DNA of 63,673 nt, taken from a virus (lineage: Duplodnaviria; Caudoviricetes). The DNA is taken from IMG/VR virus record IMGVR_UViG_3300045970_000154, positions 1 to 63,673 of that record; one strand, written 5' to 3'. The translations under genes were made by a program, and so were the position numbers. The notes beneath the pieces are model-generated. The model saw only the letters and a program-made list of their open reading frames with translations. It did no database searches and had not been told where the DNA came from. Shown here piece after piece: positions 31,762 through 63,673 of this stretch (positions are counted from its first letter, which is position 1; the number at the start of each line of letters is the position of its first letter).

Positions 31762-32880
31762 TTATCCTTTGACGTTGATGATAGGTCTGACATAATGCTT
31801 TATCTCAATCATATCCGCCTGTTGACGGATGACCTCGAAAATATCCTTATAGGCCAGAGGAGACTCGTCCAGGGTTTCTGCATCCACCTTGGCAACTATG
31901 TCTCCCATAGTCGCCTTGAACTCTTCCAGGTTCAGTAACTGCTGCGCAGCCTTTCGACCCAACACGCGGCCTGCCCCATGTGAACTTGACCACAGAGCCG
32001 GAGCATATCCTTTACCTTCCACGATGAAGGAGCCGTACTTCATGTTACCTGGGATGACACCCATCATTCCTGCTTCGGCATGGGTAGCGCCTTTTCTGTG
32101 AATCCAAAGACCATCCTTGAGTTCAGCATGGTTGTGGTTGCGGTTGATAAGGTCGCGCCAAGTAACCTCTCCCTGGCAGAACCTTATCATCTGTGACGCC
32201 ACCTTTCTAACTAACTTAAGGCGATTCTCAAGGGCAAACTCAAGGCAGAAGTTCATGTCCATGAGGTAGTCTCTACCGTTGTCGGAGTCTACCTCAAATC
32301 CAAAGTGACCTTCTCGGGCCTTTCCATCACCAGACGCAAGCTTCATGTAGTGCGTAGCAACTGCATGCCCAATACCGCGAGAGCCAGAGTGGATGATAAT
32401 CCAAACAACCTCTCGCTCATCGTAGCCAATCTCGATGAAGTGGTTTCCACCACCCAAAGATCCTAGCTGGCGCAGTCCGTTCTTCTGGAATATGTCGGCA
32501 AGGTAGTCAGATCCAGGAAGTGAGCATCCTTTATCCCATACTGAGTCATGCTGGTTGTGGTTGAAGCCGACTGGTATGTTGTCATAGATACCCTTGAAGA
32601 TACTCTGCGCCTTGCACTTTACTGTGTACAGCGGGAAGGTGGTAGGTACGGCGCACATCCCGCAGCCAATATCGTAGCCTACAAAGCTAGGATAAATATA
32701 GTCTTTTACCGCTACTACAGCACCAATCGGCAGTGTGTACCCTACGTGAACATCGGGCATAAGTGCTCCCTGCACAACAGTATCCAGGAGCATAGCCTCA
32801 CGAAATTGTTCGAGAGCCTTGGGGTCTACCGTCTCGGAAAATATCCGGTAGGGCTTATCTATTCCATCGAGTAGTTGCAT
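31762..32880 (-). CDS. rtcB: RtcB RNA 3'-phosphate ligase
   Basis: MPDVHVG, VGYDIGCG, GGGNHFIE, HSGSRG, HRKGAT, SHGAGR, DESPLAYK. Confidence 0.95.
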   Translation of the reverse strand: MQLLDGIDKPYRIFSETVDPKALEQFREAMLLDTVVQGALMPDVHVGYTLPIGAVVAVKDYIYPSFVGYDIGCGMCAVPTTFPLYTVKCKAQSIFKGIYDNIPVGFNHNQHDSVWDKGCSLPGSDYLADIFQKNGLRQLGSLGGGNHFIEIGYDEREVVWIIIHSGSRGIGHAVATHYMKLASGDGKAREGHFGFEVDSDNGRDYLMDMNFCLEFALENRLKLVRKVASQMIRFCQGEVTWRDLINRNHNHAELKDGLWIHRKGATHAEAGMMGVIPGNMKYGSFIVEGKGYAPALWSSSHGAGRVLGRKAAQQLLNLEEFKATMGDIVAKVDAETLDESPLAYKDIFEVIRQQADMIEIKHYVRPIINVKG

Positions 32881-47993: not shown

Positions 47994-48064
47994 TTGTTAT
48001 CTCCCTTTTGGTTGTTGGTGCGACATGTCGCACTGGTTAAGTAAGCAGTTGTGAGTAGTTGAAG

Positions 48065-48292
48065 TTACAAGTAGGCGTTCCATCTGACATGCCATGTTTT
48101 AATGGCGTATTTAGGCGTCACAGTCTCTGCATCGAATTCCCAAACCTCGTCCCATCCTAAAGGTTTAACAGGCAATAGCTTTCCTCTATGAAATACATAG
48201 TGGTACGCATCATAATTATACTTAATACGCTTCGCTACTCCCGTAACAATCATGTTTACGGCTTCTTCTGTGGACAGGTCGGTTAGTTTCAT
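48065..48292 (-). CDS. small paralog family member 19
   Basis: KLTDLSTEEAVNMIVTGVAKRI ... RWNAYL. Confidence 0.75.
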   Translation of the reverse strand: MKLTDLSTEEAVNMIVTGVAKRIKYNYDAYHYVFHRGKLLPVKPLGWDEVWEFDAETVTPKYAIKTWHVRWNAYL

Positions 48293-48513
48293 AGTAGGTT
48301 CCACCTGTACGAGCTAGATGTCCAGAAGCCAGTGAACGCTGCGTGTAGCTCTTCAACATGTTCCGTAGTAGGATAGTCACCACGCCGGTACCTTATCTGA
48401 CCATTCTGGACCACATAGACTCCGCTAGTGTCACCAACATAGGAAAACTCAGTTGCTACCCCACATACTAGAGCGTTATACAGCTCCTGGTTGGTAAGAT
48501 TTTTAGTATTCAT
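48289..48513 (-). CDS. small paralog family member 20
   Basis: TKNLTNQELYNALVCGVATEF ... RWNLL. Confidence 0.75.
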   Translation of the reverse strand: MNTKNLTNQELYNALVCGVATEFSYVGDTSGVYVVQNGQIRYRRGDYPTTEHVEELHAAFTGFWTSSSYRWNLL

Positions 48514-48758
48514 ATCTTCTCCCAAGGTAGACGGTTAGACACTACCCAGTCTCGGGAACTTATTGAGTAGCTTAGCAGAGACTTCAGGGGCGCATCTCTT
48601 AGAGTATAATCCGGGTCGTGCTTGGAACAACTCTGCGTACCTCCTGTAGCCTCATCATTACAGTACCACCGAGTCCGAGTACCCCACGATAGCCACGGAA
48701 ACATTCCGCACATGACTAAGTTGATCGCTTCAGCTCCAGAGATATTTTCTATCTTCAT
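48510..48758 (-). CDS. small paralog family member 21
   Basis: NISGAEAINLVMCGMFPW ... RDWVVS. Confidence 0.75.
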   Translation of the reverse strand: MKIENISGAEAINLVMCGMFPWLSWGTRTRWYCNDEATGGTQSCSKHDPDYTLRDAPLKSLLSYSISSRDWVVSNRLPWEKI

Positions 48759-48760
48759 AA

Positions 48761-49006
48761 CTACCCCCACGACAAATCATCTGCGACTTCCCAGTTATGC
48801 CTACCCCCACCTCGCGTTATTAACTCAGCAAAGGGATAGCCCTGTTCCTTGCTGTCAGGGTAGATATACTTATCAGTCTCAACGTGATCGCCGTTCTCCC
48901 TGTCCAGGCCAAACCAGTAATCCTTAGTCCCCCAGCTAGCCCACTTAAACATCCCGCAGGCAACCATGTTTACGGCTTCTTCCGCAGTAAGGTTTTTCGT
49001 CTTCAT
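48761..49006 (-). CDS. small paralog family member 22
   Basis: KTKNLTAEEAVNMVACGMFKW ... NWEVA. Confidence 0.75.
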   Translation of the reverse strand: MKTKNLTAEEAVNMVACGMFKWASWGTKDYWFGLDRENGDHVETDKYIYPDSKEQGYPFAELITRGGGRHNWEVADDLSWG

Positions 49007-49275
49007 TCCTTAACCTCCAGCAGGTTCCATCGGTAGTCTGGGTTAGTCAGAGTCCACCTACGGGCGAAAATGAGCGGTAACATCTTGCACTCGTTGCCTC
49101 TATACCCGCCCTCACTAAAAATGTCCTGGTAGTAAATATCCCCGTCGCGGATAAAATATTGAGTGGTATGTTGATCCTGCATGGGTATATCTGGCTGAAA
49201 GAAAGTGCACCTATCAGCTACCCCACACACAAGCGCATTTATCATTTCCGCCGTTGTCAGATTAGTGGTTTTCAT
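49003..49275 (-). CDS. small paralog family member 23
   Basis: KTTNLTTAEMINALVCGVA ... RWNLL. Confidence 0.75.
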   Translation of the reverse strand: MKTTNLTTAEMINALVCGVADRCTFFQPDIPMQDQHTTQYFIRDGDIYYQDIFSEGGYRGNECKMLPLIFARRWTLTNPDYRWNLLEVKE

Positions 49276-49277
49276 AG

Positions 49278-49520
49278 CTACCCCTTCTTTTTATAAACCT
49301 TCCATCTGGCAGTAGGATAGTGTCTGTGGTCGTGAGCGTTTTTGGTGGTGATGTTGGCGTACCTCATGCAAAACTTATCATCGCAGGAGGTGTATACCGA
49401 TAAGTTTCCGTCACTACTAGCGAAGTAGTAAGTAGCTATTCCAATCATCTGGACATAATCACAAACCCCAACTTCGAGCATGTTCATGGCTTCTGCTGTT
49501 CCCATCCAACTATCGGTCAT
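49278..49520 (-). CDS. small paralog family member 24
   Basis: MGTAEAMNMLEVGVC ... RWKVY. Confidence 0.75.
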   Translation of the reverse strand: MTDSWMGTAEAMNMLEVGVCDYVQMIGIATYYFASSDGNLSVYTSCDDKFCMRYANITTKNAHDHRHYPTARWKVYKKKG

Positions 49521-49731
49521 ACACAATCCAATCCCGGTCAGGGTACTTTGAGGGCAAGTTGGCAGTTTTTGTGGTGGTATTGTTGGTGTGTCTGATCTCT
49601 CCAGTTTCCTTCAATCTCCACACCATAGTCTTGCCTTTCCCCTCAAACGAGCAGTACATCCTATTCCCAGGGAAAGTAAGGTGCTTCGCAAGACCAACCT
49701 CGATCATGTTCATCGCTACTTCCGTAGTCAT
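49510..49731 (-). CDS. small paralog family member 25
   Basis: MTTEVAMNMIEVGLA ... RDWIVY. Confidence 0.75.
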   Translation of the reverse strand: MTTEVAMNMIEVGLAKHLTFPGNRMYCSFEGKGKTMVWRLKETGEIRHTNNTTTKTANLPSKYPDRDWIVYDR

Positions 49732-49760
49732 TATAGCCTCCTTGGTGCGACATGTCGCAC

Positions 49761-49967
49761 TTACCAGCCACTCCACCTTGGGTACATCCCGCTCCAAACA
49801 TCAAAGGCTTTCTCCAGCGTTCCATAACTATTCCCATCTCGGCTTGCACGGAGGTGCTTCCCGTCCCAGGTGTAGTGCTGTTCCTCTGTTCCGTACCGGA
49901 CTGACGTTATCACTCCACACTTGAGGGCATTACACGCCGCCTCTGAGGACATATTTTTGAATTTCAT
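49761..49967 (-). CDS. small paralog family member 26
   Basis: KNMSSEAACNALKCGVI ... RWSGW. Confidence 0.75.
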   Translation of the reverse strand: MKFKNMSSEAACNALKCGVITSVRYGTEEQHYTWDGKHLRASRDGNSYGTLEKAFDVWSGMYPRWSGW

Positions 49968-50191
49968 ATGGAGCCGCTCCATTTGTTTCCGTACCTGTCT
50001 GTTAGTTCCGACCACACCTTCAGCATGTACTTAAGGCTTCCTCGATCCTGCGCTCTATCCATATCCCACACGCAGCCGTCTTTTAAGCTGTAGAACCTAT
50101 CCTCCGTGTCCCAACAAATCTCCCTAACTACCCCAGTGGCAAGAGCATTGAGCGCCTCAGCCGTTGACATATGCTTGAACATGATAGTCAC
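49964..50191 (-). CDS. small paralog family member 27
   Basis: KHMSTAEALNALATGVVREICW ... KWSGSI. Confidence 0.75.
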   Translation of the reverse strand: MTIMFKHMSTAEALNALATGVVREICWDTEDRFYSLKDGCVWDMDRAQDRGSLKYMLKVWSELTDRYGNKWSGSI

Positions 50192-50421
50192 CTCTTATCT
50201 GGATCGTCCGAGACGTGCCACTCGGCACCAGCCCAATCTGAAAAGTCCTTCTTGGTCATGAAATAGGTGCCGGTGCATACTGTAGGGTTACTGTATGGGT
50301 GGAACGTCAGCACTCCCTTTCGCACCTGACAGTAATGTGCCTCATCCCAGTAGGTCAGCTTATCTATCAACCCACAGGCCAGCATGTTGAAACCCTCTTC
50401 GGTTGTTAGAGTTTTGGCCAT
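50188..50421 (-). CDS. small paralog family member 28
   Basis: TLTTEEGFNMLACGLIDKL ... EWHVS. Confidence 0.75.
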   Translation of the reverse strand: MAKTLTTEEGFNMLACGLIDKLTYWDEAHYCQVRKGVLTFHPYSNPTVCTGTYFMTKKDFSDWAGAEWHVSDDPDKR

Positions 50422-53022
50422 ACTAGCCCCCGATAACGTAGGTGTAGTGTTCCAATGACAAAGAGTAGGCGGTAACGGCTAAGGTAGCCAGGATGAAGCC
50501 TACCATTATGTTGACCAGGAGTTTAGAGTTGAGGTCGTAATCGTGATTTTCAACCTTCTTGAATGGCATGGCTACATCCCCCAGATGTTGTGAACCTCAA
50601 GAGAAGTGAACGACGCACCTTCCTTGCTGTGGCAGTTATACACATAGAACTCGATGTTGCCGCTTTCCGATTCCTCGGGGCAGAAGTCGAGTATAGCCGC
50701 AGGACAGTGAGCGATTCTGGTTTTCATGGTGGACAGTTTTCTTATGAACATGGATTCCCCTTTATTGGTTGAGCCATCCCTCTCGGAGCATCTGAGGGCT
50801 TGGCCAGCTCTCTTTTGTGTTGAACATCTGGTCTTGTATGTCGGTAGGGAACTCAGTAAACATACCCTGATACTCCCAGACCTCGACTTCATCTTCTCCT
50901 ACTCGGCATAAGCACTTGTGTGAGACTGCGTACACTTTTTCATCAGTTCCAGGTATTCCTACTACTAATATTAGATGTTTCATTTTCCTGCCTCCTCGGT
51001 GCGACATGTCGCACTACAAGTTGAAGGTATGAGCTATGTTAGACCAAAAGCTGTGGCCTTGTGGGGGCATCATCCCAGATGAAACAACTGCTTAAATTAG
51101 AATTAGGTTCAAATTGTGGGAGATGCGGTGCTTCGTACCTCAAGTACCTTCCCGCAGATGGCAGTATCTCTTCCACCTTATTACACAGAGTTTCATATCC
51201 TCGTGGAAATTTCATAACTACTCCCTGATCGCTACATCGAAGTATCTGCCGCACAACAAGCACACCACATCTTCTTCTATGCTTGTAGGGGAGTGGGCAT
51301 TCTCTGTCGTGACTCCGTTCTCGATGGAGGTGTACGTCAAGATGCGCTGCTGTATCGCTATAGTTCCTTCGCAATCCGGGCACTTGTCTGTTGTCATTTT
51401 TCTTCCTCCTAGTTGGGTATCTAAGGCTCCACCTTCTCCAGCTTAGCTAGATAGGCTTTTCCTTTAGCGGTGATGGTAGCTTCGTAGTGGTATCTTCCTT
51501 CCGCCAGCCCTCGGTGCATAAGCGCATGAATAGCGTTTGCCATACCGACAGGATAGTCAGCCTGAGTTACTCCTTCGGACAAAGCCAGAAGTCTCATTAT
51601 TAGTCGCGGGTCCATGTTGCCTCCTATGTGGCTCCAGATTACTTGCGTCGGCCTAGCACTTCGCACCGAACCCTGAGGGCTTGCTGGTTTGAGGTGCGAC
51701 ATGTCGCACCTATTTGTCGTTGCCTTTCGGCTAGAACTTTTTCATGGCATTCTCCTTGATCTCTTTACATTTGCAGGATGGGCAGGGCTTCTGGCAGTTG
51801 CAAGCGTTCAAAAACAGTTCGTAAGCGGTAACACCGTTAGTCTCACCTATTGGGGTATAGATTCTCGGTATCATCACTTCTTCGCTTTGCAACAGGTGCA
51901 ACGCTTCTCGGTCTTGTCCTTGCGGTCAATGACGTTGAAGACGCGCATGTTCTTGCCATAGAGTGAGTCTTGTCCTGGGTTGGCACAGGTACACGGCATG
52001 ATTACGGGTTCGGCCATTTCGCTCTCCTTTCAGATGCGGCGACGGATAACGTCGCCGGTTCGTGACGCCTTCTTCGGGTCAGAGATGGGGTTGGTTGAGA
52101 TGACCAGACGGGGCTTGTCTGCGTTGGCTAGTCCTTTGGTCAGGAAGGATATGCCTTGCCCAGATAAAGTGACGTGTTCGTGACAGCCCCAGATCATCAT
52201 TCCGTAGCTCCTTGTGGTTAGTTATGCAGTTATGAATATTTCCGTTTGCAGAAGATACTCAAGGGCATCCATAGCGTCATTGATTCCGCCGATCCTGCCG
52301 TCGCACTCGATCACTTCGCCGTAGTTTTCGAGGAGAAGTGCAGAAGCTCGGTCTGCCTTGGTAGCGTTGATGTCGTTCTTGTACTCCAAAAGAACATTTT
52401 CCAGCAGCTCGATTACTTTCTTCCGTTTCATTTGATCTCCCTTGGTTGGTGCGACATGTCGCACTTACTGCTTCTTTCCCACGAGTGCTTCCAGGTCGTT
52501 GAGAATCTCGTTCACCAAGAAGTTGACGTTAGCGTCGTTTGTGAAGGCCAGGATGGTTGCTACTTTGCTTGCTACTGAATCGAGGCTTGCCATGTTGATC
52601 TCCTTTGTTGCGACATGCCGCAGTTGTTATATGGAACGCAACACCACAAAATCGTTACCGGTGATTTCCTTCAGGGTTTCTGCCACAGTTTTTTTACCTG
52701 CTGCCCGTTTCGCCGCAATCATTTCGTCGTACATAGGGATAAACTTCTCAGCGGTACTGGCATACCTGCTGTAGGGAATCTCCTCACGCTTTCTGACCAC
52801 AAGGAGGCATTTGTCCCTAGCCACTATGAGTTCGTCCAAGTTAAACCACTTTTTAGCGTAATACGGTGACTCGATCATAGGTTCTCCTTAGTTGTTCCAG
52901 CAATCTATCGAAGACCCGACCCTATGCGAACAGGAAAGGGGGATAACCTGTATACACCAGACCGGATATTCGATACATTTCTGGAATAACTTGAGGGGGC
53001 TTGCGCCCCCTCGTTGTTGAGG

Positions 53023-53229
53023 TTATACCAGCGGTACTACCGGCAGCGCCCCGATCAGGCGGTACTCGTTGCCACCTTTGGAGGTAGCAATCCGACCGTT
53101 CAGCTCGGCCAGCGGCTTGGTGCGGAATTTCCGTCCGTCCGGGGTGTTGGCGTGGTTGTACACGCGGCCTTTTGCTACGGTACCGGCGGGGGTTACTTCC
53201 AGAACTGCATTGTTGATGTAAACGCTCAT
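53023..53229 (-). CDS. beta-rich small protein, triplet member A
   Basis: KGRVY...DGRKFRT...Y.LIG, similar to 53318-53509 and 53611-53814. Confidence 0.7.
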   Translation of the reverse strand: MSVYINNAVLEVTPAGTVAKGRVYNHANTPDGRKFRTKPLAELNGRIATSKGGNEYRLIGALPVVPLV

Positions 53230-53317
53230 GGCGTCTCCTTTTACCAGCTCGACCTATGGGTCATGGCTTGGCGGTTGATGCTGTCCTTACTACTCAATGT
53301 GAGAGTGGCCGAAGAGG

Positions 53318-53509
53318 TCAGTGCTTCACGCGAGAATCACTCCAAACTACGCGGTACTTCTTGCCGTTGGAGGCTGTGATAAGATTCCCGTTTATATGTT
53401 CTGCTCTGACAGTGCGCAGGCTACGAGTTCCATCGTACGAGACGGTTCCCTTCACAACGACGCTACCAGCGAGGGTTTTAGAAACCCAGGCGTTTTGCAA
53501 ATTAATCAT
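53318..53509 (-). CDS. beta-rich small protein, triplet member B
   Basis: KGTVSYDG...LRT...INGNLIT...KYRVV. Confidence 0.65.
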   Translation of the reverse strand: MINLQNAWVSKTLAGSVVVKGTVSYDGTRSLRTVRAEHINGNLITASNGKKYRVVWSDSRVKH

Positions 53510-53610
53510 TACGTCGAACTCCTATTACCTGGGTCCCATAAAGGACCTCGCGGCGGTTGAGGTTGGCTTGAGGAGGGCTTACGCCCTCCTACGGTGTGCC
53601 GAAGTTGATG

Positions 53611-53814
53611 TTAGTTGAAGGGGACAGCCGGAACGTCACCGATTACGGTGTAGGACGCTTTTCCGGTGGTGAAGACCTTACCAGAGATGCTCTGGATGGC
53701 GCGGGTCTTGAACTTGGCACCATCAGCGGTGCCGTCTTTGCCGTATACTTTGCCACGAGCGCAAAGCTGGCCATTGTCGTTGCGGAAGAATGAAGCCTGG
53801 AAGAGATAACGCAT
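53611..53814 (-). CDS. beta-rich small protein, triplet member C
   Basis: RGKVY...DGAKFKT...ISGKVFT...YTVIG. Confidence 0.7.
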   Translation of the reverse strand: MRYLFQASFFRNDNGQLCARGKVYGKDGTADGAKFKTRAIQSISGKVFTTGKASYTVIGDVPAVPFN

Positions 53815-53958
53815 TTGAAACTCCTTTTACCTGCTCACCCTATGGGGCGAGTCGAGGCGGGTTGGTTGATTGTGGGAGGGACGGGTTGAAGTGGCCGAAG
53901 ATACTAGAATGGGAGCAATCACCGCCTTTCGATGTAGTAGCTGGTGCGACATGTCGCA

Positions 53959-54252
53959 CTAAGCGAACAGATGAACTATCCAGCCGATGCCAAGGGCTAC
54001 GGCAGGGGTAAAGACGGCATTGTTGGCGGCTCTCCCTACAAGCTCAGCCGTAATGTCTTTGTTGTCAGATTCTTTGTGCGTTAAGAAGGACACCACAAGC
54101 ATTACGCCGATGGCTCCATTCAGGGACAAGATTGGGGCGTTGAATGAGTAGGCTATGAACCAGCCCCACAATTTACTCAGCACGAACCCTGCCCACGCTA
54201 GCCTGCCTACCGCCAGACACAGCACCGTAACAACCATATACGTGTATCTCAT
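53959..54252 (-). CDS. membrane protein (about 3 TM)
   Basis: Hydrophobic segments, LWGWFI motif; bracketed by two palindromes. Confidence 0.65.
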   Translation of the reverse strand: MRYTYMVVTVLCLAVGRLAWAGFVLSKLWGWFIAYSFNAPILSLNGAIGVMLVVSFLTHKESDNKDITAELVGRAANNAVFTPAVALGIGWIVHLFA

Positions 54253-54324
54253 TTCCTCCTCCGTGGTGCGACATGTCGCACTATCTGGTTAGTTATTTAT
54301 AATATTCACTACTGCATATTTATG

Positions 54325-54395
54325 TTGACAGATTCAGGAATCCGTGGTAAAATAGAACCTGTTCTGCCGGAAAAAACCTAAAGGGGGATTATGCC
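54325..54395 (+). promoter_or_regulatory. antisense-oriented sigma70 promoter, copy 2
   Basis: TTGACA-17-TAAAAT, preceded by a TCACTACTGCATA box; duplicate of 39309-39378. Confidence 0.7.
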
Positions 54396-54400
54396 TGTTC

Positions 54401-55612
54401 CTACTTCCCCCTGACGACCATGTAGACACTCGTGTATCTCTGATTAACCCAGTCCTGGATGTAGCACTTATCCTTTCCCTTGATGTGCTCCGGTATAACT
54501 ATGACTGCCGTAGATAGTGACTGATGGAGATCCTTCACTGTCTTCCAGTGTGCTGTCTCGAACGCATGGTCACAGTTACATGCTGAGAAGAAATCCTCCC
54601 TGATAGGCTCCCTGATACTCCTAAAGAACCTGACCAGTTTCCCTGCCCTAATGTCGAGCATGTTCTGCGCTTTCATGTGGTACTCAGCCACCAGAAGAGA
54701 TAACTGCATAGACCTTGCTGAGAACCTATGATCCTTGAACCAGTTGACAGCCAAGTCCTTAGACCGTGCTTCATGACCGTGGTGTGCAGGCCACTCTTCT
54801 GATGGAGTATGCCCCTTGCCGAAATCATGGCAGAGAACAGCCAGGAACACATCGAAGCTGTACTTGAGAGTCTTACAGCGGTCGATAGCCTTCATGGTAT
54901 GCCCATAGGCAGTATCGTAGCCATGATGCTCAATCGGACCAGCAGGAACCTTCCGCAGCAAGTCAAGGGGTGCGAAGTGATAGTGTAAGCAGTCAGCCGC
55001 AGCGAGTATGTCGAAGAACTTGCTGGGCTTGGCGCACTGCTCGTATACCTTCCGCAGCTCCTTCTCGACCCTCTCAGCGTTCACATGAACGATCTGAGGG
55101 CCGTACTCTTTCATTTTGTCATAGGTCTTTTCTTCTATGACGAAATCCAGCTTAGCTGCGAACCGCGCAGCTCGGAATATACGCAGGGGGTCGTCGGCAA
55201 AGGCAGTCGTGCCTATCGCCCGAATGGTCTTGTTTTCGATATCCTTCACACCTCCTGTAGGGTCGATGATTCTGCCATCGTAAACACTCTCAGCGATGGC
55301 ATTGATGGTGAAGTCACGGCGGTGAAGGTCTTCGATCAGGGTGGCTCCTCTCCACCCGAAGTCCTTATAACCAGGACCTGTTGATTTTTCAGAACGGGTG
55401 AGTGCTACTTCGTTCCCGTCCACCAAGTATACGGGGAAGTCGTTGCCAACTCGTTTAGCGGTAGGAAATACCCGCTTAAACGTGTAGTCGGCGCACTCCA
55501 TTACATAGTCAATGTCCTGAATAGGCAGACCGAGTATTGAGTCTCTGATGCAGCCGCCTACCTTGTAAGCGTAGCAGCTTGCATCTTTGAAATTGACTGG
55601 GGTAGGCGGCAT
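54401..55612 (-). CDS. cca: CCA-adding tRNA nucleotidyltransferase with HD domain
   Basis: VGGCIRD, DIDY, DLHRRDFTINAIA, DDPLRIFRAARF, ER, LCHDFGK; start moved to MPPTPV after AAGGAG. Confidence 0.9.
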   Translation of the reverse strand: MPPTPVNFKDASCYAYKVGGCIRDSILGLPIQDIDYVMECADYTFKRVFPTAKRVGNDFPVYLVDGNEVALTRSEKSTGPGYKDFGWRGATLIEDLHRRDFTINAIAESVYDGRIIDPTGGVKDIENKTIRAIGTTAFADDPLRIFRAARFAAKLDFVIEEKTYDKMKEYGPQIVHVNAERVEKELRKVYEQCAKPSKFFDILAAADCLHYHFAPLDLLRKVPAGPIEHHGYDTAYGHTMKAIDRCKTLKYSFDVFLAVLCHDFGKGHTPSEEWPAHHGHEARSKDLAVNWFKDHRFSARSMQLSLLVAEYHMKAQNMLDIRAGKLVRFFRSIREPIREDFFSACNCDHAFETAHWKTVKDLHQSLSTAVIVIPEHIKGKDKCYIQDWVNQRYTSVYMVVRGK

Positions 55613-56040
55613 GTTGCTCTCCTTTCTAGTTAGTGATTGGTGCGACATGTCGCACCGGCTACAGAGAAACCACGAAGTCTCCCTGATCGAACACAAGGTC
55701 AACGGTAAGGATTTCTTCGTTACAGTCGTAGTGCTCGTTGTACTTCACAGCCTCAAGCAGCCCATTCTCCTCTGACTCCTCGATTAAGGCGGATAGCTTG
55801 TTCATAAGATCGTTTACTGTCACTCGGCACTCTCCTTTCTTGGTTACACGGCTAAGACCACAATGTCCTTTCCGGCTCGTGTGCTAGACTCGACGTAGGC
55901 ACCGGAATTAGGAAAAGTGTCTATAACAGTAACTACGTCAACGTCTTCCGTATCGAAGAACGTGTCGAGTGTCGCATCATAAACGGCGACCTTCATCTTA
56001 GGGTCGAGTTTTTTGAGTTTAGCTATAAGCTCTTTTACTG

Positions 56041-56493
56041 TCACGCCACACTCTCCTTCGGTGCGACATGTCGCACCTGCTCTTGGCGGCTGAAGTTGCC
56101 ACAGATATTATCGAAGGCATCAATTCCAGCCTCAACATCGAACTCTTCTGCGTAGCTTTCCAGTAATAGACAGGTTCCTATTCCGTATGACCCAAGTTCG
56201 GAGCAATGCACACAGAAGGCACAGCATTCAGGACGTGATCGGTCTCTGGGCGCAAAGCACAACTTACCTTCACTGTTGCGAAGAGCAAATCCGGTAGGTT
56301 TCGGGTTCCTAGGAGGAAATACATCTTCCGAGTAGTAGCTGACGAACTCCAGTTCTTCTTCCACACAGCCCCACTCTTCTGCCAGAAGGACGATAGCTTC
56401 CTGTGCTGCTTCCTTCCAATTCTCAGCCTGCACAGGGATACTTCTGGTGCGCTTGAAGTTGATGTGGAAGATCATAGTAGCTTCGGCACTCAT
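56041..56493 (-). CDS. hypothetical protein with Cys cluster
   Basis: CCAFCVHC...GTC...C; palindrome+RBS cassette upstream. Confidence 0.6.
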   Translation of the reverse strand: MSAEATMIFHINFKRTRSIPVQAENWKEAAQEAIVLLAEEWGCVEEELEFVSYYSEDVFPPRNPKPTGFALRNSEGKLCFAPRDRSRPECCAFCVHCSELGSYGIGTCLLLESYAEEFDVEAGIDAFDNICGNFSRQEQVRHVAPKESVA

Positions 56494-56528
56494 GCTGCGC
56501 TCTCCTTCGGTGCGACATGTCGCACCAG

Positions 56529-56861
56529 TTAAACTGGGTTGATTATCCTTCCGACATAGTGGTCGTAGAAAGCCTGTGGGAGCCGGTCACCAAAGTAATT
56601 TGCGGCAGCTTCCACGTCCGAGAAACGCGTGATGAACAGGTCAGCAAACTGGTTGTCTATCGAGCAGGAATTGCTCTGAGTTGTGGTGTACTCTTTAAGC
56701 TCACCAGTCGTCATGTTCTTGACCGTATGCTCGAAGTTGGTACTAGCCAACACCAGTTCTCCGTTAACCACGTTCGGAAGGTCGGAGTCCAGGAGAGGTA
56801 TCTGATACCGAGGTTGACCCCACCCCATCTCGCCTTTCTGTGCTACTGCCCTATACTTCAT
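56529..56861 (-). CDS. hypothetical protein
   Basis: 110 aa; palindrome+RBS cassette upstream. Confidence 0.6.
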   Translation of the reverse strand: MKYRAVAQKGEMGWGQPRYQIPLLDSDLPNVVNGELVLASTNFEHTVKNMTTGELKEYTTTQSNSCSIDNQFADLFITRFSDVEAAANYFGDRLPQAFYDHYVGRIINPV

Positions 56862-57442
56862 GCTGCACTCTCCTTTGGTGCGACATGTCGCACCATCCGT
56901 TTGACAATCAAGGCGATGGTTTCGAGGCTCACGCCCCGAGTCAATAACCAGCAGGTACGGAAGGTTGCTACTTTGGTATTAGAAACTTCTCGTGCGCTCA
57001 TGTCCGTGCCTCCTTTTGGCAGTCCTCACAGACTGTCTTGTTGGTCGTGGTGAACCATTTGTCGCAACAGCAGCATTGTCTGCGGTAGCGTTTCATACCT
57101 GCTCCGGGTGATTCTTGTGCCAGTGAGCGTCTGCTGCTTCGATAGACACTCCCATTTCGGCGGCGAACAACATCCAGTCGATGTACATAACGTCTTCCAT
57201 AATTAACCCCCTTAGGTTGGATGCTCTAAGAGCGCAAAGGCTATCTTGTAGGCTTTACGCTCTTGCAGTTCCCAATCTGATTAGTCACCGAACACGCTCA
57301 TAACGTGTCCAGCATCGCCACCTTTTGAGTATGGCTTAGGTCGTGTGTTGGTGGGCGGTTATCGCCGTATGTGTTGAGGTGGATTCAAACGTCCTCCATT
57401 GGTGCGACATGTCGCACTAAGTAGACAGATGTGAATTATAAT

Positions 57443-57760
57443 TGCCCAGCACGACAGCCTAGCGGGAACCAGAAGGGCAATAGACCAGCCCCTATGAACC
57501 GTGACCCTAGGATTTTATCGAGCTTTAATATCTGACACATGATCTCTGACGCAAAGAGAGTTGATACTTGAGGTCTGAACTCTGACCTCTGAACTCTGAA
57601 CTTTAACGGGAAGGTCGAGGCATTTTAGGCACCAGCTTCAAAGGGTCTATGCCCTCCACCGATGCCTACCTCACCTGTTCGTTATTGTCTTTCGCGCATG
57701 AGTCCCGGATAACCCTCCGGGAAGGGGAGTCTAGTTCTCCAGTTTTCATCGTGCTGGGCA
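57443..57760 (-). ncRNA. putative ~320-nt structured ncRNA with heptamer repeats
   Basis: 12-bp terminal inverted repeat TGCCCAGCACGA/TCGTGCTGGGCA, internal hairpins, AGTTCAG repeats, no ORF. Confidence 0.6.
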
Positions 57761-58002
57761 GCACCGTTAGTGCGACATGTCGCAGTAGTGAGCGATAATA
57801 CCCTCAGCTACATGTCTCTGCATGTCTCCTGTGATCTCGTGACCGGTATCAGAGATGAATATCCAGTACTGCTTGAACAGATCCAAGGTAATGTAGCCGA
57901 CCTCTCGTCCATTTAGTCGCGCAGCCCTTTCAGCGTACTTCTCTCTATAAGCAGGCTGAAAGGTTACGTAGTTCTTACCCACATCGTACCGGCTGTTAGC
58001 CA

Positions 58003-58620
58003 TTAGATCTCAACCTCCGTTATGGCATTAGAGGTGGACAGGGCGAGGTCTACATTCGCCTCGAACACATCAATCTCCTCCTCCATGCTGATGATGAACT
58101 CTCTCATCTTGAGCGGGTCGAGAAGAGTGTACTCGTTGTTGGCCAGGAAGCCCTTGCTGAAGGCAGCGTCACCCTCAACGTCAGCCTTGCCGTCCTTGCC
58201 GCGAGAGGCCAGGAGCTGCTGGTCGAGCCTCTGTTTGACTTCGAGGTTCCCCCGATCAACCTGCATGGTAGCCTTGGCGTAGGCACTCTTTGCAGCCTTG
58301 AGGGTCTCTTTCTGGTACTCGATGGAGGATTTCCTCTCGATAGCCTCCGCGACGGTCATTTTGACACCGCCAACTTCAACGGTCGTGGTGGCGTTGCTCA
58401 CCACGATAGCTGATTTGGCAGTCATGCGGTTGGCGATCAGGGCCTTGAGGGAGTCAACGCTGGCCAGAGCGGTCCTGTTGAACTCTTCCGCCGAGTTGAA
58501 ACCGGTAGGGAAACTCGACCCGATCTTTACGCCGCAGAACGTGGCATCCTGCGTGGCAGATTTGATACGCTTGTCGAGCAACTTGAGGTCGTTGAGGAGT
58601 GCTGCAATGGATTTCTTCAT
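58003..58620 (-). CDS. coiled-coil protein, distant DIP1984/DUF6847-like
   Basis: SNATTTVEVGGVKMTVAEAIERK and C-terminal SNAITEVEI resemble that family (from memory, not searched). Confidence 0.6.
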   Translation of the reverse strand: MKKSIAALLNDLKLLDKRIKSATQDATFCGVKIGSSFPTGFNSAEEFNRTALASVDSLKALIANRMTAKSAIVVSNATTTVEVGGVKMTVAEAIERKSSIEYQKETLKAAKSAYAKATMQVDRGNLEVKQRLDQQLLASRGKDGKADVEGDAAFSKGFLANNEYTLLDPLKMREFIISMEEEIDVFEANVDLALSTSNAITEVEI

Positions 58621-58692
58621 CGGTTAATCTCCTTGAGTTTTGAGGGTTGATGTTGGCGGCGGTTAGTGCGACATGTCGCAATACTGTGAAAT

Positions 58693-58780
58693 TGGCAGAG
58701 AGTAGAGGATTCGAACCTCTGTGAACCTTGCGGTTGTCGGTTTTGGAGACCGATGCTATCGACCACTAAGCGAACTCCCT
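58693..58780 (-). tRNA. tRNA with CCA (Trp) anticodon and long variable arm
   Basis: AGGGAGT/ACTCTCT acceptor, TCGGT-CTCCAAA-ACCGA anticodon arm, AGAGG-TTCGAAT-CCTCT T arm, encoded GCCA end, 88 nt. Confidence 0.85.
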
Positions 58781-58786
58781 GTAAAT

Positions 58787-58861
58787 TGGCGTCTGTCCTA
58801 GGAAGTTTCATCCTAGATTTCCCTTCGGGGGTTGGGCGTTCTGGTTTAAACTACACAGACG
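58787..58861 (-). ncRNA. aberrant tRNA-like element ending in CCA
   Basis: CGTCTGT/ACAGACG stem followed by CCA; D-like and T-like hairpins without TTCG. Confidence 0.45.
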
Positions 58862-58872
58862 TAACTGGGTAA

Positions 58873-59154
58873 TTAGAAGTAGTGCCGCTGGGCGTCGCTC
58901 AACAGCGTCGGTCCGGGATTGTACGGGAGAACTGAGTCAATCCCGCAAGCGGGGCATATTGCGGTTGCTCCCATATCCTCATAGGTGATGATCTCAGAGG
59001 GAAGGAAGACCCTCAAACAGTGGTAGCAGGTACACTCTTTGGCCTCCATAACCTTCTGATGATTCTTGAAGGAATGCTGAGACATATTTGCTATGTCGGG
59101 AGTAGTCGGTGGTGGGTTGCCCCAAACACGTTGCATAATGCTTCCGAGTGTCAT
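58873..59154 (-). CDS. Zn-ribbon hypothetical protein
   Basis: CTCYHC...TAICPACGIDSVLP, a conserved family motif. Confidence 0.7.
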   Translation of the reverse strand: MTLGSIMQRVWGNPPPTTPDIANMSQHSFKNHQKVMEAKECTCYHCLRVFLPSEIITYEDMGATAICPACGIDSVLPYNPGPTLLSDAQRHYF

Positions 59155-59206
59155 GGCCTATCTCCTTATCTTGAGTTAGTGCGACATGTCGCAATGATTA
59201 GTTATC

Positions 59207-59280
59207 CATCCGTAGTCAGGCTCGAACTGACATTTCCCGCTGGGAGGCAAGGCGACCGATTCCCGTTAGTCGATACGGAC
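59207..59280 (-). tRNA. degenerate tRNA-Gly(CCC)-like element
   Basis: GTCCGTA/TACGGAT acceptor, GTCAG-TTCGAGC-CTGAC T arm, 6-nt anticodon loop CTCCCA, no encoded CCA. Confidence 0.5.
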
Positions 59281-59342
59281 ATGGGTTGTGGCTCTACTTT
59301 AAATGGCGAGACATACATCTCAGCGTCGCCGCTTTTAACCAT

Positions 59343-60100
59343 CCTGGCCTAGCACTTCGCACCAGACAATTCCCGACTAGTCGGGAAATTGCTTCGTAGT
59401 TGACCGATGTTAAGGACACCGGACGAACCTTTACTATATGTGACTCCTTGCCGTTCCTGTACGTGCGTTCCCACTAAAGAGAAATGTCGCACCTCATTGC
59501 TACTAGGCAGGTTGTCAGAGCTTGCGCTCTAATGTCAGGTGTTACCTGACTCGTTGGCTATCGCCGGTAGTGGGACTGTTAGGGCAACCCACTACTATAT
59601 TCACAGATTTCATCATCTATACCGCGCTGCGTTGAAAGCGTAGCACTTATTTTTAGCTACGTAGTTTGACGTAGCATTCCAAAAAGAGCATGACGTAGGT
59701 CTCTTTTCAACTCCCCCGCTGTTAAGCCCCGGAGCAAGACAAAGGCGGAAAGATTATCCTTCAGGCGGTGGTCAGGCGGCTTTGTAGGCCGACAACCATT
59801 CGACTGTCATAGCTTGCGCTATGAGGATTGGGTACCAAGTAATACCCTTCCGTGTCTAAGGTCGCACATTAATTAGTGTGCTAGTCTGTTTGGTTATGGT
59901 GTGATGTATCACCATGCCTAATCGTTCGGGACTTACGCGAAGATGCCTCACGGCAATGTCGCTTTGCCCTATCTAAGGAACCGCTTAAGTCGGCGGTTAA
60001 ACCAAAGACCTTTTGGCTATTCAGTTGAGAAAGACCATGTTCCTAGTGGCGCGGCAAGTCTCCAGTAGTGACCCCGAAAGGTTCTGTTGACGTTCGTTGT
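59343..60100 (-). ncRNA. putative large structured ncRNA (~700 nt)
   Basis: ORF-free, own promoter, boxA-like GTCTTTCTCAACTGAATA, many hairpins including GNRA loops, upstream of tRNAs. Confidence 0.55.
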
Positions 60101-60106
60101 GAGATA

Positions 60107-60135
60107 ACTATACAGAAGCGACTAACTACAGTCAA
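60107..60135 (-). promoter_or_regulatory. sigma70-type promoter TTGACT-17-TATAGT
   Basis: Points into the ncRNA/tRNA cluster. Confidence 0.75.
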
Positions 60136-61632
60136 GCAATTTATTTAGGGTACACCGTTTTTTATTTCGACCTCCTGTTTGGTGCGACATATGTCGCACC
60201 GGCAAGCTCTACATTAGTTACCCCGGCCTAGCAAGTTCGCACCGGACATTTGCGTCCGGGACGCAAATGCTTCGTGGCTTACCTGCTTGACGGAGCAGGC
60301 ACCGGTAGATAATGGTTTAGGCGGGAGTAACGAGAGCCGGTGCGAGACCAGCAGCGGCTTTCTGGACGATAATTTCCAAGCACCGGGAGATAACGTCTTC
60401 GGAGGTGATAAGCCCCTCTTCAAACTCCAGTTCCGCCTCTTCCATCCGGTTGAACATTTCCTGGAACAGGCTGATCTTCTTTTTATAATCTTCGTTGCTC
60501 ATTTCAGTCTCCTTGGTTTGCGTCCGGGACGCAAAGAGTTACTTGATGATTTTGCCCTTGACGATCACATCGTTCGGGAACTGCCCCACTTCGCATCCTG
60601 CGGCCCAGAGGATCTGACCGATCTTTCCGCGTTTCGTTTCCTTGGCCCAATCTCTCATCGAAGGTTTCATCGCTTGCTCCTTTTGGTGCGACGTGTCGCA
60701 CCTGTGATCTGATACTCCTTAGACCAGCACTGCCCGACCTGAGACGCACCTTTAGTGCAACCAGCAGCAGCGCGACAGGTAGTGCAGAGTTCCGCAACTG
60801 CGGAAGCATAAGATTGCGGGAACGAAGACAACTTTGGTGGATTGAATTTCACCGTAGCCGGTAAGTGTCTGCTCTTCGCAACGTCGAACGTGTTATCGTG
60901 AAACGCAGTTGAAACACTCATGTCAGTCTCCTTGGTTTGCGTCCGGGACGCAAAGCTTGTACCGTTTAGCGTAGCGTTTCCACTTCAGTTCCTTCGCGCC
61001 AACCCCAGACAACTCAATAACGCACTTGGCGAGGTCAAGCTGGATGGACTCCACGAGAGCCGACAGTCGCTCGATCTCTTCGGTCAGGTTTTTCCTTTCA
61101 GTTTCGCAAATCCACATACGGTAATCAAACAGCTCTTTCGGTGTCGCTCTCTGGTACTTGCCTCGTCCTTCGTAGCTGCGAACTTCGCTCATCTCATCTC
61201 CTTTGCGTCCGGGACGCAAACCGTGTTGTTGTCGTTGGTGCGACATTTGTCGCACCTACAGGATATCCCGAAGCTCGAACGAGTAGGTGTCAGTCACGGC
61301 GGACGTAGACATACCGGTGAGGCAACTCATCTCGATGATGGCGTCGTCCAGGTCGATGCACTCTCCCCTAAGCACTTCCTTGTCAGTAGCTTTACCGCGA
61401 ACAATTACATACATCATACCTACCCCTTTCGTGTCCTCCACATTAATTGCTCCGGCCTAGGATTTCGCACCGGACGTTGCACAAGCGCAACGCTTCGTGG
61501 TTTGAGCGGGATGGTTAATCCCGCTATTTGTACCCATCACCAAGGACAGGCACCGTCACATTATAAACATAGGCAGCTCCTTTAGGGTAGAGGCTTGAGG
61601 TGCGACATGTGTCGCACCTCTCAATCAGTGGG

Positions 61633-62184
61633 CTAGGCAGCGGCAACCGTAGCCTGGGCACGCAGGGCGATCTCCGCCTGAACCTGATGCAGCAGGGCGG
61701 TCAGTTCGGCGTCGGTCAGGGACGAGAGGGACTTCGTCTCAGAAGCGGCTTTCTGGAGTTCATTAGCGGCCTCAGCAGCAGCCTTTTCAGCAGCTTTTTT
61801 GGCAACTTCGGCGGCTTTTTCGGCGGCTTTTTCGGCACCCGTCAGCTCAACCGGCTTCGGTTTTTCGATCATGAGTCCGGTGACAGGGTCGGCAACACAG
61901 TTGCGCTCGAACATCTTGGAGAGCGAGCGGTGAGCGGCCCACGCGTCGGGATTCCCTTTGAGGGAATCGACGGAGAAAGCCAGCCGGAAGCGGTCTTTGG
62001 CGAAGTTGAGGAAGTCGACGTGCTTGACTTCATCTTCTTTGGCCATTGCGATGAACAGTGCGTTGCCGTTGGCGATCTTGCCGTGAGCGACGGACAGACC
62101 TTTGGCCAGCTTGCCGTACTCATCGACCCGAAGAGCGTTGATGGTAGTAGCGACGGACAGGACGATCTCGATTTTAACGGACAT
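61633..62184 (-). CDS. early protein with Ala/Lys/Glu-rich helical C-terminus
   Basis: AAGGAG RBS before MSVKIEIV; first substantial gene after the terminal promoters. Confidence 0.7.
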   Translation of the reverse strand: MSVKIEIVLSVATTINALRVDEYGKLAKGLSVAHGKIANGNALFIAMAKEDEVKHVDFLNFAKDRFRLAFSVDSLKGNPDAWAAHRSLSKMFERNCVADPVTGLMIEKPKPVELTGAEKAAEKAAEVAKKAAEKAAAEAANELQKAASETKSLSSLTDAELTALLHQVQAEIALRAQATVAAA

Positions 62185-62320
62185 GACATTCTCCTTTTTG
62201 GTGCGACTTGTGTCGCACTTGGTTGATGTTGCGTGAACTTGATTTGCGTCCCGGACGCAAAGGATAACCTCACTTGATGCGTCCCGGTTGCGGTGACTTG
62301 CCTCTCTTGACCGTGAATAC

Positions 62321-62929
62321 ATTATAACACAACTGGATTCTTAGTCAAGCATTACTTTTTAAGCAGTTGTGATTAGTTTAGCAGTAAAAAAATTCAGCGA
62401 ACTTCTCATAATTCTCTTCCGTCATACAGCCAGACTGGTACAGCTCAAAAATGTTGTAGCGGATAGCCTGCTTTCCCTCTTTAGTTTCGCCGTTGTAGTA
62501 CCCTTGAAAAGACGCCGTGATACTCATCTCATCCCCCTTTGCGTCCGGGACGCAAACCGTTGCGACAAGTGTCGCACCGTCCAGCGTCCCTGTTAGTTGC
62601 CTCTCTCCAGCGTGAAAACATTATACCATAAGTAGATTTTTAGTCAAGCTATTTCTTTTATCATTCCAAGCACTTACTTTGCGTCCGGGACGCAAATGCT
62701 GACGCATTTGGCGACCAAGGTACGCAAACCACATTTTTTTCCTTTTCGACACCTTGCACATTCTTTTCCTATCAACGCTTGCGCGATATAGTGGTTATCC
62801 TTTAATCATCCTACTGAATACTGAAAAGCTTTTACTTTGCGTCCGGGACGCAAATGGTTCTGGGCAGTTACTCGTTGCGTGATACTCTCCATCGTGAAGA
62901 CATTATACCACAACTGGATTCTTAGTCAA
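62321..62929 (-). promoter_or_regulatory. three tandem early promoters TTGACT-16-TATAAT (62321-62348, 62620-62647, 62902-62929)
   Basis: Shared module CTTGACTAARAATCYAsTT.TG.TATAATGT.TTCACG at 280-300 bp spacing. Confidence 0.8.
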
Positions 62930-62995
62930 GTTTTATTATCTATCCTATAGCGGATAGTTAAACATTTTATTTTGGTATGCAAAGCGGCCTTTCTT

Positions 62996-63106
62996 TTTCG
63001 GTGACAGTTTCGGTGAACCATCAAAGACATTTTCGGTGAACCATCAAAGACATTTTCGGTGACGGATTCGGTGAACCATCAAAGACATTTTCGGTGACGG
63101 ATTCGG
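62996..63106. repeat. iteron-like tandem repeat with TTCGGTGA core
   Basis: Six TTCGGTGA cores, three followed by ACCATCAAAGACATT, spaced 11-12 or 23 bp. Confidence 0.85.
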
Positions 63107-63434
63107 CTTGTCCCGAATTCTCGCCTTTTCTTATTCCTAGTCAATTTCTACATACCTTTGCGTCCGGGACGCAAACCATACGCGAATAATCCGTACAGTG
63201 CGACAAATGTCGCAACATATTCCTTAAAAGACACTTATAATACTCCAAGCAAGTCACTTGTAACACAGTCAACGGGTGTTGACTGTTTTACATCTTTACT
63301 GTTCTACAAGTAAATTGGTTGCGCTCTTTAAAATGTGTATCATACACGCGTAGAGAATTATGAAAAATGTCTATTATGCGCGCGCGCCTTATGATGGCTG
63401 GTATAGTTATGTTTTGCGTCCAGGACGCAAATAA

Positions 63435-63673
63435 GGCATCGCCCAGGGCATCGCCTGTGCCTCGCCCAGGGCATCGCCTGTGCCTCGCCCAGGGCATCGC
63501 CTGTGCCTCGCCCAGGGCATCGCCTGTGCCTCGCCCAGGGCATCGCCTGTGCCTCGCCCAGGGCATCGCCTGTGCCTCGCCCAGGGCATCGCCTGTGCCT
63601 CGCCCAGGGCATCGCCTGTGCCTCGCCCAGGGCATCGCCTGTGCCTCGCCCAGGGCATCGCCTGTGCCTCGCC
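63435..63673. repeat. perfect 23-bp tandem repeat GGCATCGCCTGTGCCTCGCCCAG, about 10 copies, runs off window
   Basis: Read directly; the spurious ORFs here have a matching 23-aa period. Confidence 0.95.

Follow-up and report, generated by a model that had tools for sequence, protein, structure and literature searches.

The locus considered here lies in a virus record of IMG/VR that is 63,673 bases long and 56% complete by estimate, and that whole stretch of DNA is what we call the window. Its long open reading frames (ORFs) are all carried by the minus strand, and its genes cover early and replication functions, with a DNA polymerase, SbcCD, a ligase, PhoH, a DnaB-like helicase, a primase, an RtcB RNA ligase and a CCA-adding enzyme. 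The virus is a large, uncultured lytic phage from a pond. Within its genome, the initial annotation had singled out a stretch of about 700 nt (59343-60135) as an ORF-free, hairpin-dense transcript with its own promoter and a boxA-like element. In the direction of the minus strand, the following features are found there:

60208 to 60282, minus strand: copy of a boundary motif upstream of the unit, just upstream of the promoter.
60160 to 60199, minus strand: untranslated-region (UTR) palindrome GTGCGACATATGTCGCAC plus AGGAGG, without a start codon behind it, upstream of the promoter.
60107 to 60135, minus strand: sigma70-type early promoter TTGACT-17-TATAGT, matching at 10 of 12 positions, with its predicted start near 60100.
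59396 to 60100, minus strand: putative untranslated, hairpin-dense RNA body of about 700 nt.
59335 to 59404, minus strand: boundary motif at the 3' end of the unit, made of ACGAAGC, a variable hairpin (59370-59387) and GTCTGGTGCGAAGTGCTAGGCC.
59206 to 59281, minus strand: tRNA-like element, called "tRNA-???" by ARAGORN with a 2-base anticodon, and doubtful.
58693 to 58780, minus strand: tRNA with anticodon CCA and a long extra arm (Rfam, 55.3 bits at 58696-58780; also ARAGORN).

Downstream of the RNA thus come, in this order, the tRNA-like element, the gene for a 93-aa zinc-ribbon protein and tRNA(CCA). By eye, the tRNA-like element has good acceptor and T arms; the Rfam tRNA model gives no match to it at E<=10. 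It may serve as a processing handle. The tRNA at 58693-58780 has the Trp anticodon CCA, yet its extra arm is a GCAA-capped hairpin. Long extra arms are normal in the Leu, Ser and Tyr tRNAs (class II), and not in tRNA(Trp).

The boundary motif is composed of CAAaCCACGAAGC, a hairpin of variable sequence, and GTCCGGTGCGAA..CTAGGCCGG. Five copies are present on the minus strand, always between genes:

61505-61437, 60282-60208, 59404-59335, 51692-51633 and 43721-43673 (the last one weaker), minus strand: copies of the boundary motif.

Their flanks are kept as CCACGAAGC and GTCCGGTGCGAA..CTAGGCCGG..TAATGTGGAG, while the hairpin differs in each copy yet always pairs. Elsewhere the copies follow protein genes. 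Here, one of them (60282-60208) stands before the RNA and another (59404-59335) directly behind it, and because the motif brackets the RNA in this manner, the latter can be said to fill a "gene slot." The motif could be a terminator or a processing site fused to a phage-specific promoter.

The promoter reported in the initial annotation is present at 60135-60107. Taken alone, such a match is not above chance, since one was found in 58500-60800 against 1.9 expected. Between 44 and 63.7 kb, however, the three best promoters (at 62929, 62647, and 62348) line up with it, and all four have in common CTTGACT, TATA.T, an equally spaced downstream TCAC and an A-rich stretch upstream. Because of this alignment it was accepted as the fourth member of an early-promoter family, which makes it credible as an early promoter. 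No intrinsic terminator was found on the minus strand between this promoter and the downstream genes, and a discrete RNA of about 700 nt would therefore need processing. The boxA-like element that had been noted just behind the promoter stood up in part: the word GTCTTTCTCAACTGAATA is indeed there, while its boxA reading is at chance frequency. The boxA-like TGGTCTTTCTCAA at 60037-60025 carries 3 mismatches in 13 positions and is not above chance; in the window, 24 matches with at most 3 mismatches were counted against 19.3 in shuffles, using a consensus that may not be that of the host. A boxA (Nus-factor) antitermination leader was thus rejected, the boxA word near the 5' end being no commoner than chance.

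The absence of any ORF of 60 aa or more inside the stretch, on which the initial annotation was built, is borne out, the largest frames reaching 47 aa on the minus strand and 41 aa on the plus strand. Stop codons of all three kinds occur in each of the six frames (13-21 per 300 codons). Since every frame holds all three of them, stop-codon recoding rescues no frame and was ruled out. No Shine-Dalgarno sequence (SD) followed by a start codon was detected in 60213-59200 with a script that does pick up the genuine starts 59154 and 60502, nor did the 10 stop-to-stop frames give any convincing protein-family signal (PHROGs; best E 0.006). A protein-coding gene or a pseudogene was rejected, with neither an SD-led open frame nor residual protein-family similarity to speak for it. 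Could the stretch nevertheless encode one or more very small proteins, of under 30-47 aa? Frames of 30-47 codons that could start at GTG or TTG do exist, but they lack an SD, which in the neighbouring genes reads AAGGAG, and they match no family, making this reading highly improbable. The stretch, which stands out in this genome, is probably a non-coding RNA.

What it does contain is a dense succession of hairpins. The six stems that the initial annotation had listed on the minus strand are all present, and the main hairpins, from the 5' end of the RNA to its 3' end, are these:

60071 to 60082, minus strand: hairpin ACCU[UUCG]GGGU.
60043 to 60068, minus strand: hairpin CUACUGGAG[ACUUGCCG]CGCCACUAG.
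59979 to 59998, minus strand: hairpin AACCGC[CGACUUAA]GCGGUU.
59944 to 59955, minus strand: hairpin UGCC[GUGA]GGCA, with a GNRA loop.
59896 to 59915, minus strand: hairpin AUGGUG[AUACAUCA]CACCAU.
59807 to 59824, minus strand: hairpin UCAUAGC[GCAA]GCUAUGA, with a GNRA loop.
59682 to 59707, minus strand: hairpin AAAAGAG[12 nt]CUCUUUU.
59639 to 59675, minus strand: GCUACGU/ACGUAGC/GCUACG, two mutually exclusive hairpins (59656-59675 and 59639-59661) with a common middle arm.
59567 to 59595, minus strand: hairpin GUAGUGGG[13 nt]CCCACUAC.
59515 to 59550, minus strand: hairpins GUCAGGU[AAC]ACCUGAC and UUAGAGC[GCAA]GCUCUGA.

Perfect hairpins with stems of at least 6 bp number 9 in the stretch, where segments of 763 nt hold 2.8 on average (sd 1.8), and the maximum of the whole 63.7-kb window (11 perfect hairpins) overlaps the stretch, which is the densest place in it. 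The comparison of folding energy with shuffled controls, suggested as a check in the initial annotation, came out clearly: on the minus strand the minimum free energy (MFE) is better than that of 100 out of 100 shuffles (z -4.72). The plus strand also folds well (z -3.99), again beating each of its 100 shuffles; when 20 shuffles were used, z was -5.29 for the minus strand and -3.31 for the plus strand. In sliding windows of 200 nt, z runs from -4 to -5.5 at 59400-59700 and is -4.7 at 59800-59999. The loops distinguish the two strands: four hairpins capped by GNRA or UNCG loops lie on the minus strand and none on the plus strand, for a mean of 0.9 and a maximum of 4 per 800 nt in the window. 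Most stems are perfect Watson-Crick palindromes; several hold G.U pairs, which exist on the minus strand only and become A-C mismatches on the plus strand, while the stem at 59626-59644 is better on the plus strand. There is no internal duplication beyond two copies of the 16-mer AGCGCAAGCT.TGACA, whose alignment score of 28 is inside the shuffle range (mean 23.6, maximum 36).

These strand comparisons bear on whether the hairpins act in DNA instead, as a replication origin, a site for packaging or for a pause in injection, or an inverted-repeat recombination hot spot. That most stems are perfect palindromes and that both strands fold better than shuffles would fit such an element, and so would the second allele described below, in which the centre is wholly different, as at mosaic recombination joints. 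The GNRA and UUCG loops and the G.U pairs are however specific to the transcribed strand, and the promoter reads into the stretch. The latter also holds no iterons, no tandem repeats and no AT-rich block, the repeat arrays of this phage lying 3 kb upstream (63003-63106 and 63439-63673), and none of the window's 13 DnaA-box-like words falls within it. A function at the DNA level is accordingly judged improbable, if somewhat less so than very small proteins.

Large structured RNAs are known from phages, and the initial annotation had proposed GOLLD or ROOL, as a divergent member, or else a new class. None of the 4227 Rfam models matches the stretch at the gathering score, and only the tRNA at 58696-58780 was recognized in wider scans. 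At E<=10, a search of 1801 bases returned this tRNA plus three chance-level matches outside the RNA body; with permissive filters, 951 bases (59190-60140) gave 0 matches at the same threshold, and membership of GOLLD or ROOL was not confirmed. RNase P RNA, group I and II introns, OLE, 6S and riboswitches were rejected for want of an Rfam match. The same applies to tmRNA, which neither ARAGORN nor Rfam finds in the window, the same tools detecting it in the related locus L013, and to a decayed tRNA array, the tRNA model giving 0 matches at E<=10 on 59190-60140.

ROOL and GOLLD are described as large phage RNAs of unknown function "often near tRNA islands" (PMC12286853), and the phage context of ROOL is reportedly also given in PMC5737381. 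Like ROOL, the stretch is a helix-rich, non-coding sequence of several hundred nucleotides that a phage carries beside tRNA-type genes. It differs in having no Rfam-model match (E<=10) and no known homologue family, and its hairpins appear to follow one another as local units, with no sign of pseudoknots or of a multi-domain fold that is conserved. With GOLLD it has in common a comparable size, a phage origin and the adjacency of tRNA genes. The GOLLD setting (a phage, near a tRNA island, about 600-900 nt) is also that of this ~700-nt stretch, as a matter of context that does not define the family. GOLLD is often longer than 800 nt, with one conserved and one less conserved part (PMC12286853), and a partition of this kind is seen here too, the two alleles sharing their flanks and not their centre. 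The variable part is however central here, whereas in GOLLD it is the 5' half, the conserved domain being the 3' one; there is no Rfam match, and no tRNA lies inside the stretch. Size, phage origin and the place beside tRNA-type genes would thus suit a very divergent GOLLD or ROOL RNA, but with 0 Rfam matches at E<=10 to either family over both 951 and 1801 bases, and no sign of a long-range, pseudoknotted architecture, this is the least credible of all the readings considered. A further trait of both families is the formation of homo-oligomeric cages. By analogy, then, the stretch resembles the large RNAs of tRNA islands in its context, and it is no member of those families. At a much smaller scale, a survey lists 10,006 candidate viral RNAs averaging 67 bases (PMC10690425), and a short module of the stretch could be among them.

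Homologues are similarly elusive. The nhmmer search proposed in the initial annotation returned none for 59200-60200, at E<=10 and then at E<=100, in 35 and then 86 loci, and sensitive blastn of the same interval gave no match in these two sets. The 86 loci surround the relatives of the neighbouring 205-aa gene (at most 47% identity) and come from viral and metagenome contigs. With a setting for distant matches, blastn of 59300-60200 against 50,697 phage records gave no match either, and four exact words from the RNA were found in 0 stretches each in viral contigs. A covariance model built on 59512-59680 alone (R1; 169 positions, 49 pairs) found only itself in the window and 73 of the 97 other loci, a set from which L001, L015, L017-L032, L036, and L078-L083 (the locus of the window itself, and T5-like loci that are nearly identical) had been left out.

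In the distant relatives, the syntenic place is occupied by tRNA arrays, tmRNA or skipping-rope RNAs instead. A tmRNA (113 bits; L013 1443-1791) and skipping-rope RNAs (L008 4651-4738; L009 4639-4726; L013 2188-2266) lie just upstream of the gene of family phrog_1491, the 205-aa neighbour. Skipping-rope RNAs and phage tmRNA thus share with our RNA the same neighbourhood upstream of that gene (L008, L009, and L013), but neither of them matches the stretch, which is far longer. Its novelty is plausible, but unproven because the stretch is an orphan.

The only comparison available comes from the pond itself. The stretch is present in two pond-metagenome DNA runs (no RNA run is among the listed holders), and in the assembly graph of run X1 a bubble opens at 59403-60121, with the window's form of 719 nt at depth 55 and a second form of 720 nt at depth 13. 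The two alleles have identical 30-base ends. Between these, they are about 85% identical over 307 nt, and 352 of the 719 nt are unalignable at 80%. The second allele aligns at 59535-59716, with 25 substitutions and 10 gap positions, and at 59967-60121, with 20 substitutions. It is unalignable at 80% over 59433-59534 (102 nt), and it has 259 other letters in place of 59717-59966 (250 nt), which include the hairpin at 59807-59824. The aligned RNA parts bear 13-14% substitutions, for 41 substitutions in 244 nt of neighbouring coding DNA. As they are about as diverged as the coding DNA, constraint on the sequence is weak: the RNA is no better conserved than the genes, and over half its length it is worse.

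Do the substitutions at least spare the pairs? Those listed are set back by more than some 30 nt from either end of their aligned piece, namely 16 of the 20 and 17 of the 25, which is why many partner bases in the second allele are missing from the comparison. In the UUCG hairpin, A60082>U and U60071>A (minus-strand letters) keep the pair. In the hairpin at 60043-60068, U-A becomes C-G at 60067/60044 and A-U becomes U-A at 60066/60045, while G-C becomes U.G at 60060/60051. Because this hairpin was chosen after the changes had been seen, unbiased nulls were run as well. An adjacent compensatory doublet occurs in 2-5% of random mutants (P about 0.02-0.05), whereas a loose count of compensatory pairs in any 3-bp helix gives 7 against a null mean of 4.1, which is not unusual. 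The fold of the second allele's 5' 103 nt is no better than that of random mutants (P 0.37). The hairpin at 59567-59595 shows no listed change in its 22 stem bases and one change in the loop, at 59582. Some other, well-predicted pairs are broken: A-U becomes G-A at 59616/59607, and at 59656/59675 an end pair goes from C-G to A-G (C59656>A), with indels at 59639-59675. The long-range helix of the MFE structure, 60084-60077/59432-59425, is also broken. Read from these two alleles, the evidence for structure is suggestive at best, and it speaks for hairpins that form locally, one after another, more than for a single "giant" fold closed globally.

Such a chain might also be a collection of independent parts, that is, several small RNAs or cis elements (attenuator-like alternative hairpins, hairpins bound by phage regulators) and not one RNA. 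The preference of the allele data for local hairpins over the long-range MFE helices would agree with this, as would the two exclusive hairpins formed by GCUACGU/ACGUAGC/GCUACG and the heavy use of hairpin motifs elsewhere in the phage. A single promoter-like site in the stretch speaks for one transcript instead, and the hairpins have no repeated motif in common except the 16-mer AGCGCAAGCT.TGACA, whose score is within the shuffle range. We regard such a cluster as unlikely.

More weight must be given to a structured leader or spacer without a function of its own, in other words just the untranslated 5' part of an early transcript that serves to express the tRNA-like element, the 93-aa gene and the tRNA. 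The stretch may then be the remnant of a lost gene or tRNA array, with hairpins that only guard against Rho and RNases or are incidental. No terminator separates the promoter from the downstream genes, and the UTR palindrome with its AGGAGG and no start codon is what gene loss would leave behind; in the relatives of the 205-aa gene this position is taken by tRNA arrays, tmRNA or skipping-rope RNAs; the two co-occurring alleles cannot be aligned over half of the stretch, and some of the predicted pairs are broken in the second one. Against this, 700 nt of junk are rarely kept by phage genomes, and the two alleles, at 720 and 719 nt, have kept almost the same length. Nowhere in the window are hairpins denser, the special tetraloops are on the transcribed strand only, and there is no tRNA remnant at E<=10 and no protein remnant. 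Such a leader remains a serious, if distinctly less than even, prospect.

The explanation that we put first, and still tentatively, since it falls somewhat short of an even chance, is that of an early-transcribed, untranslated RNA made of a chain of local hairpins, which sits in a "gene slot" marked off by two boundary-motif copies, ahead of a tRNA-like element and a tRNA. The host's sigma70 RNA polymerase would start near 60100, at the fourth member of the early-promoter family, and about 700 nt would be transcribed, folding co-transcriptionally into at least 12 stable local hairpins, several of them capped by GNRA or UUCG loops. Transcription would probably continue into the tRNA-like element, the 93-aa zinc-ribbon gene and tRNA(CCA), and processing, at the conserved boundary motif and/or the tRNA-like element, would free a discrete RNA. 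It would then act at the RNA level early in infection, as a stable scaffold or decoy that binds proteins or RNAs, and not as a protein-coding gene or a DNA site. That the RNA is transcribed, processed and stable, and that it has any role in trans, we infer.

A bolder version of this proposal would make the RNA the founder of a new class of large phage RNA. In such an early, modular hairpin chain of about 700 nt, the 5' and 3' parts would be conserved around a centre that is hypervariable and specific to each strain. Maturation would take place at the phage's own boundary motif and/or the tRNA-like handle, and the RNA would work in trans, for instance as a decoy or scaffold to which RNA-binding host factors of defence or decay attach, in a lineage equipped with RtcB and a CCA-adding enzyme. 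We hold this to be rather unlikely, and the stretch is a lead, not a demonstrated RNA class. Biology has few RNAs as poorly understood as the large structured ones that phages encode next to tRNA genes, ROOL and GOLLD, and each independent example from an unrelated phage lineage helps to tell whether a "big RNA beside tRNAs" is a general phage strategy. The present stretch would be such an example, from a pond phage whose lineage is little sampled, and an unusual one in that two co-existing alleles share their ends and not their centre.

The lineage of this phage is indeed poorly sampled. The best relatives of its phrog_1491 neighbour (conserved, 205 aa) are at most 47% identical, no relative of the CCA-adding enzyme was found in the related-locus search, and a 739-aa protein has no match in the phage collection by tblastn. 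The window closes with repeats:

63439 to 63673: perfect 23-nt tandem repeat, 10.2 copies (also at 1 to 127 of locus L096).
63003 to 63106: further repeats of 23 and 35 nt.

A second record, ending in _000147 (37,134 bases; locus L096), opens with the same 23-nt tandem repeat. As this repeat is common to both ends, the window and that record are taken to be one phage genome split at the repeat. The repeat is the sole sequence that L096 and the window share; past the repeats, the genes of the second record run the opposite way, so that transcription diverges from the repeat region. As for the RNA, BLAST finds only a 14-nt word of it in this second contig (E 0.31).

The UTR palindrome upstream of the promoter belongs to a family that is widespread in the phage. 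The palindrome GGTGCGACATGTCGCAC(C/T) sits just 5' of the SD in about 20 genes, with 21 copies (family D2) in the minus-strand 5' UTRs of 48000-63300, for example at 59175-59190, 57398-57413, and 56506-56521. An 18-nt variant whose centre is 2 nt longer has 6 matches at 60.2-63.2 kb, against 0.03 expected. It looks like a phage-wide operator, or an RNA hairpin for a regulator of translation or processing. A second palindrome, TTTGCGTCC(G/C)GGACGCAAA, has 10 copies at 60247-63433 among the promoter-proximal small genes (families D7 and D8), and it is often immediately 5' of the SD. The UTR palindrome was found in 10 viral stretches, of which only L096, L093, and L089 (all from one 37-kb record) belong with the window. 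The 18-base form also occurs in 101 stretches of prokaryote genomes; 56 of the 80 listed come from three metagenome-assembled genomes (MAGs) of Bryobacterales (Acidobacteriota), in which a repeated element of about 150 nt is built around it. This may possibly be a clue to the host, or a coincidence. A BLAST search for the RNA in these three genomes has a best E of 0.49, and model R1 found nothing in 151 genomes of the order to which they belong, in a search run without a positive control.

Two further observations concern RNA in this phage. An RtcB-type RNA ligase (31762-32880, minus strand) and an HD-domain CCA-adding enzyme (54401-55702, minus strand) are both phage-encoded; together they make up a tRNA repair kit, with a possible bearing on the role of the RNA and of the tRNA-like genes. 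Lastly, a second ORF-poor stretch lies at 57400-57766 on the minus strand, where the 7-nt tandem repeat TCTGAAC has four copies (57574-57602) and the folding z-score is -3.4 (57600-57799); it may be another non-coding element.
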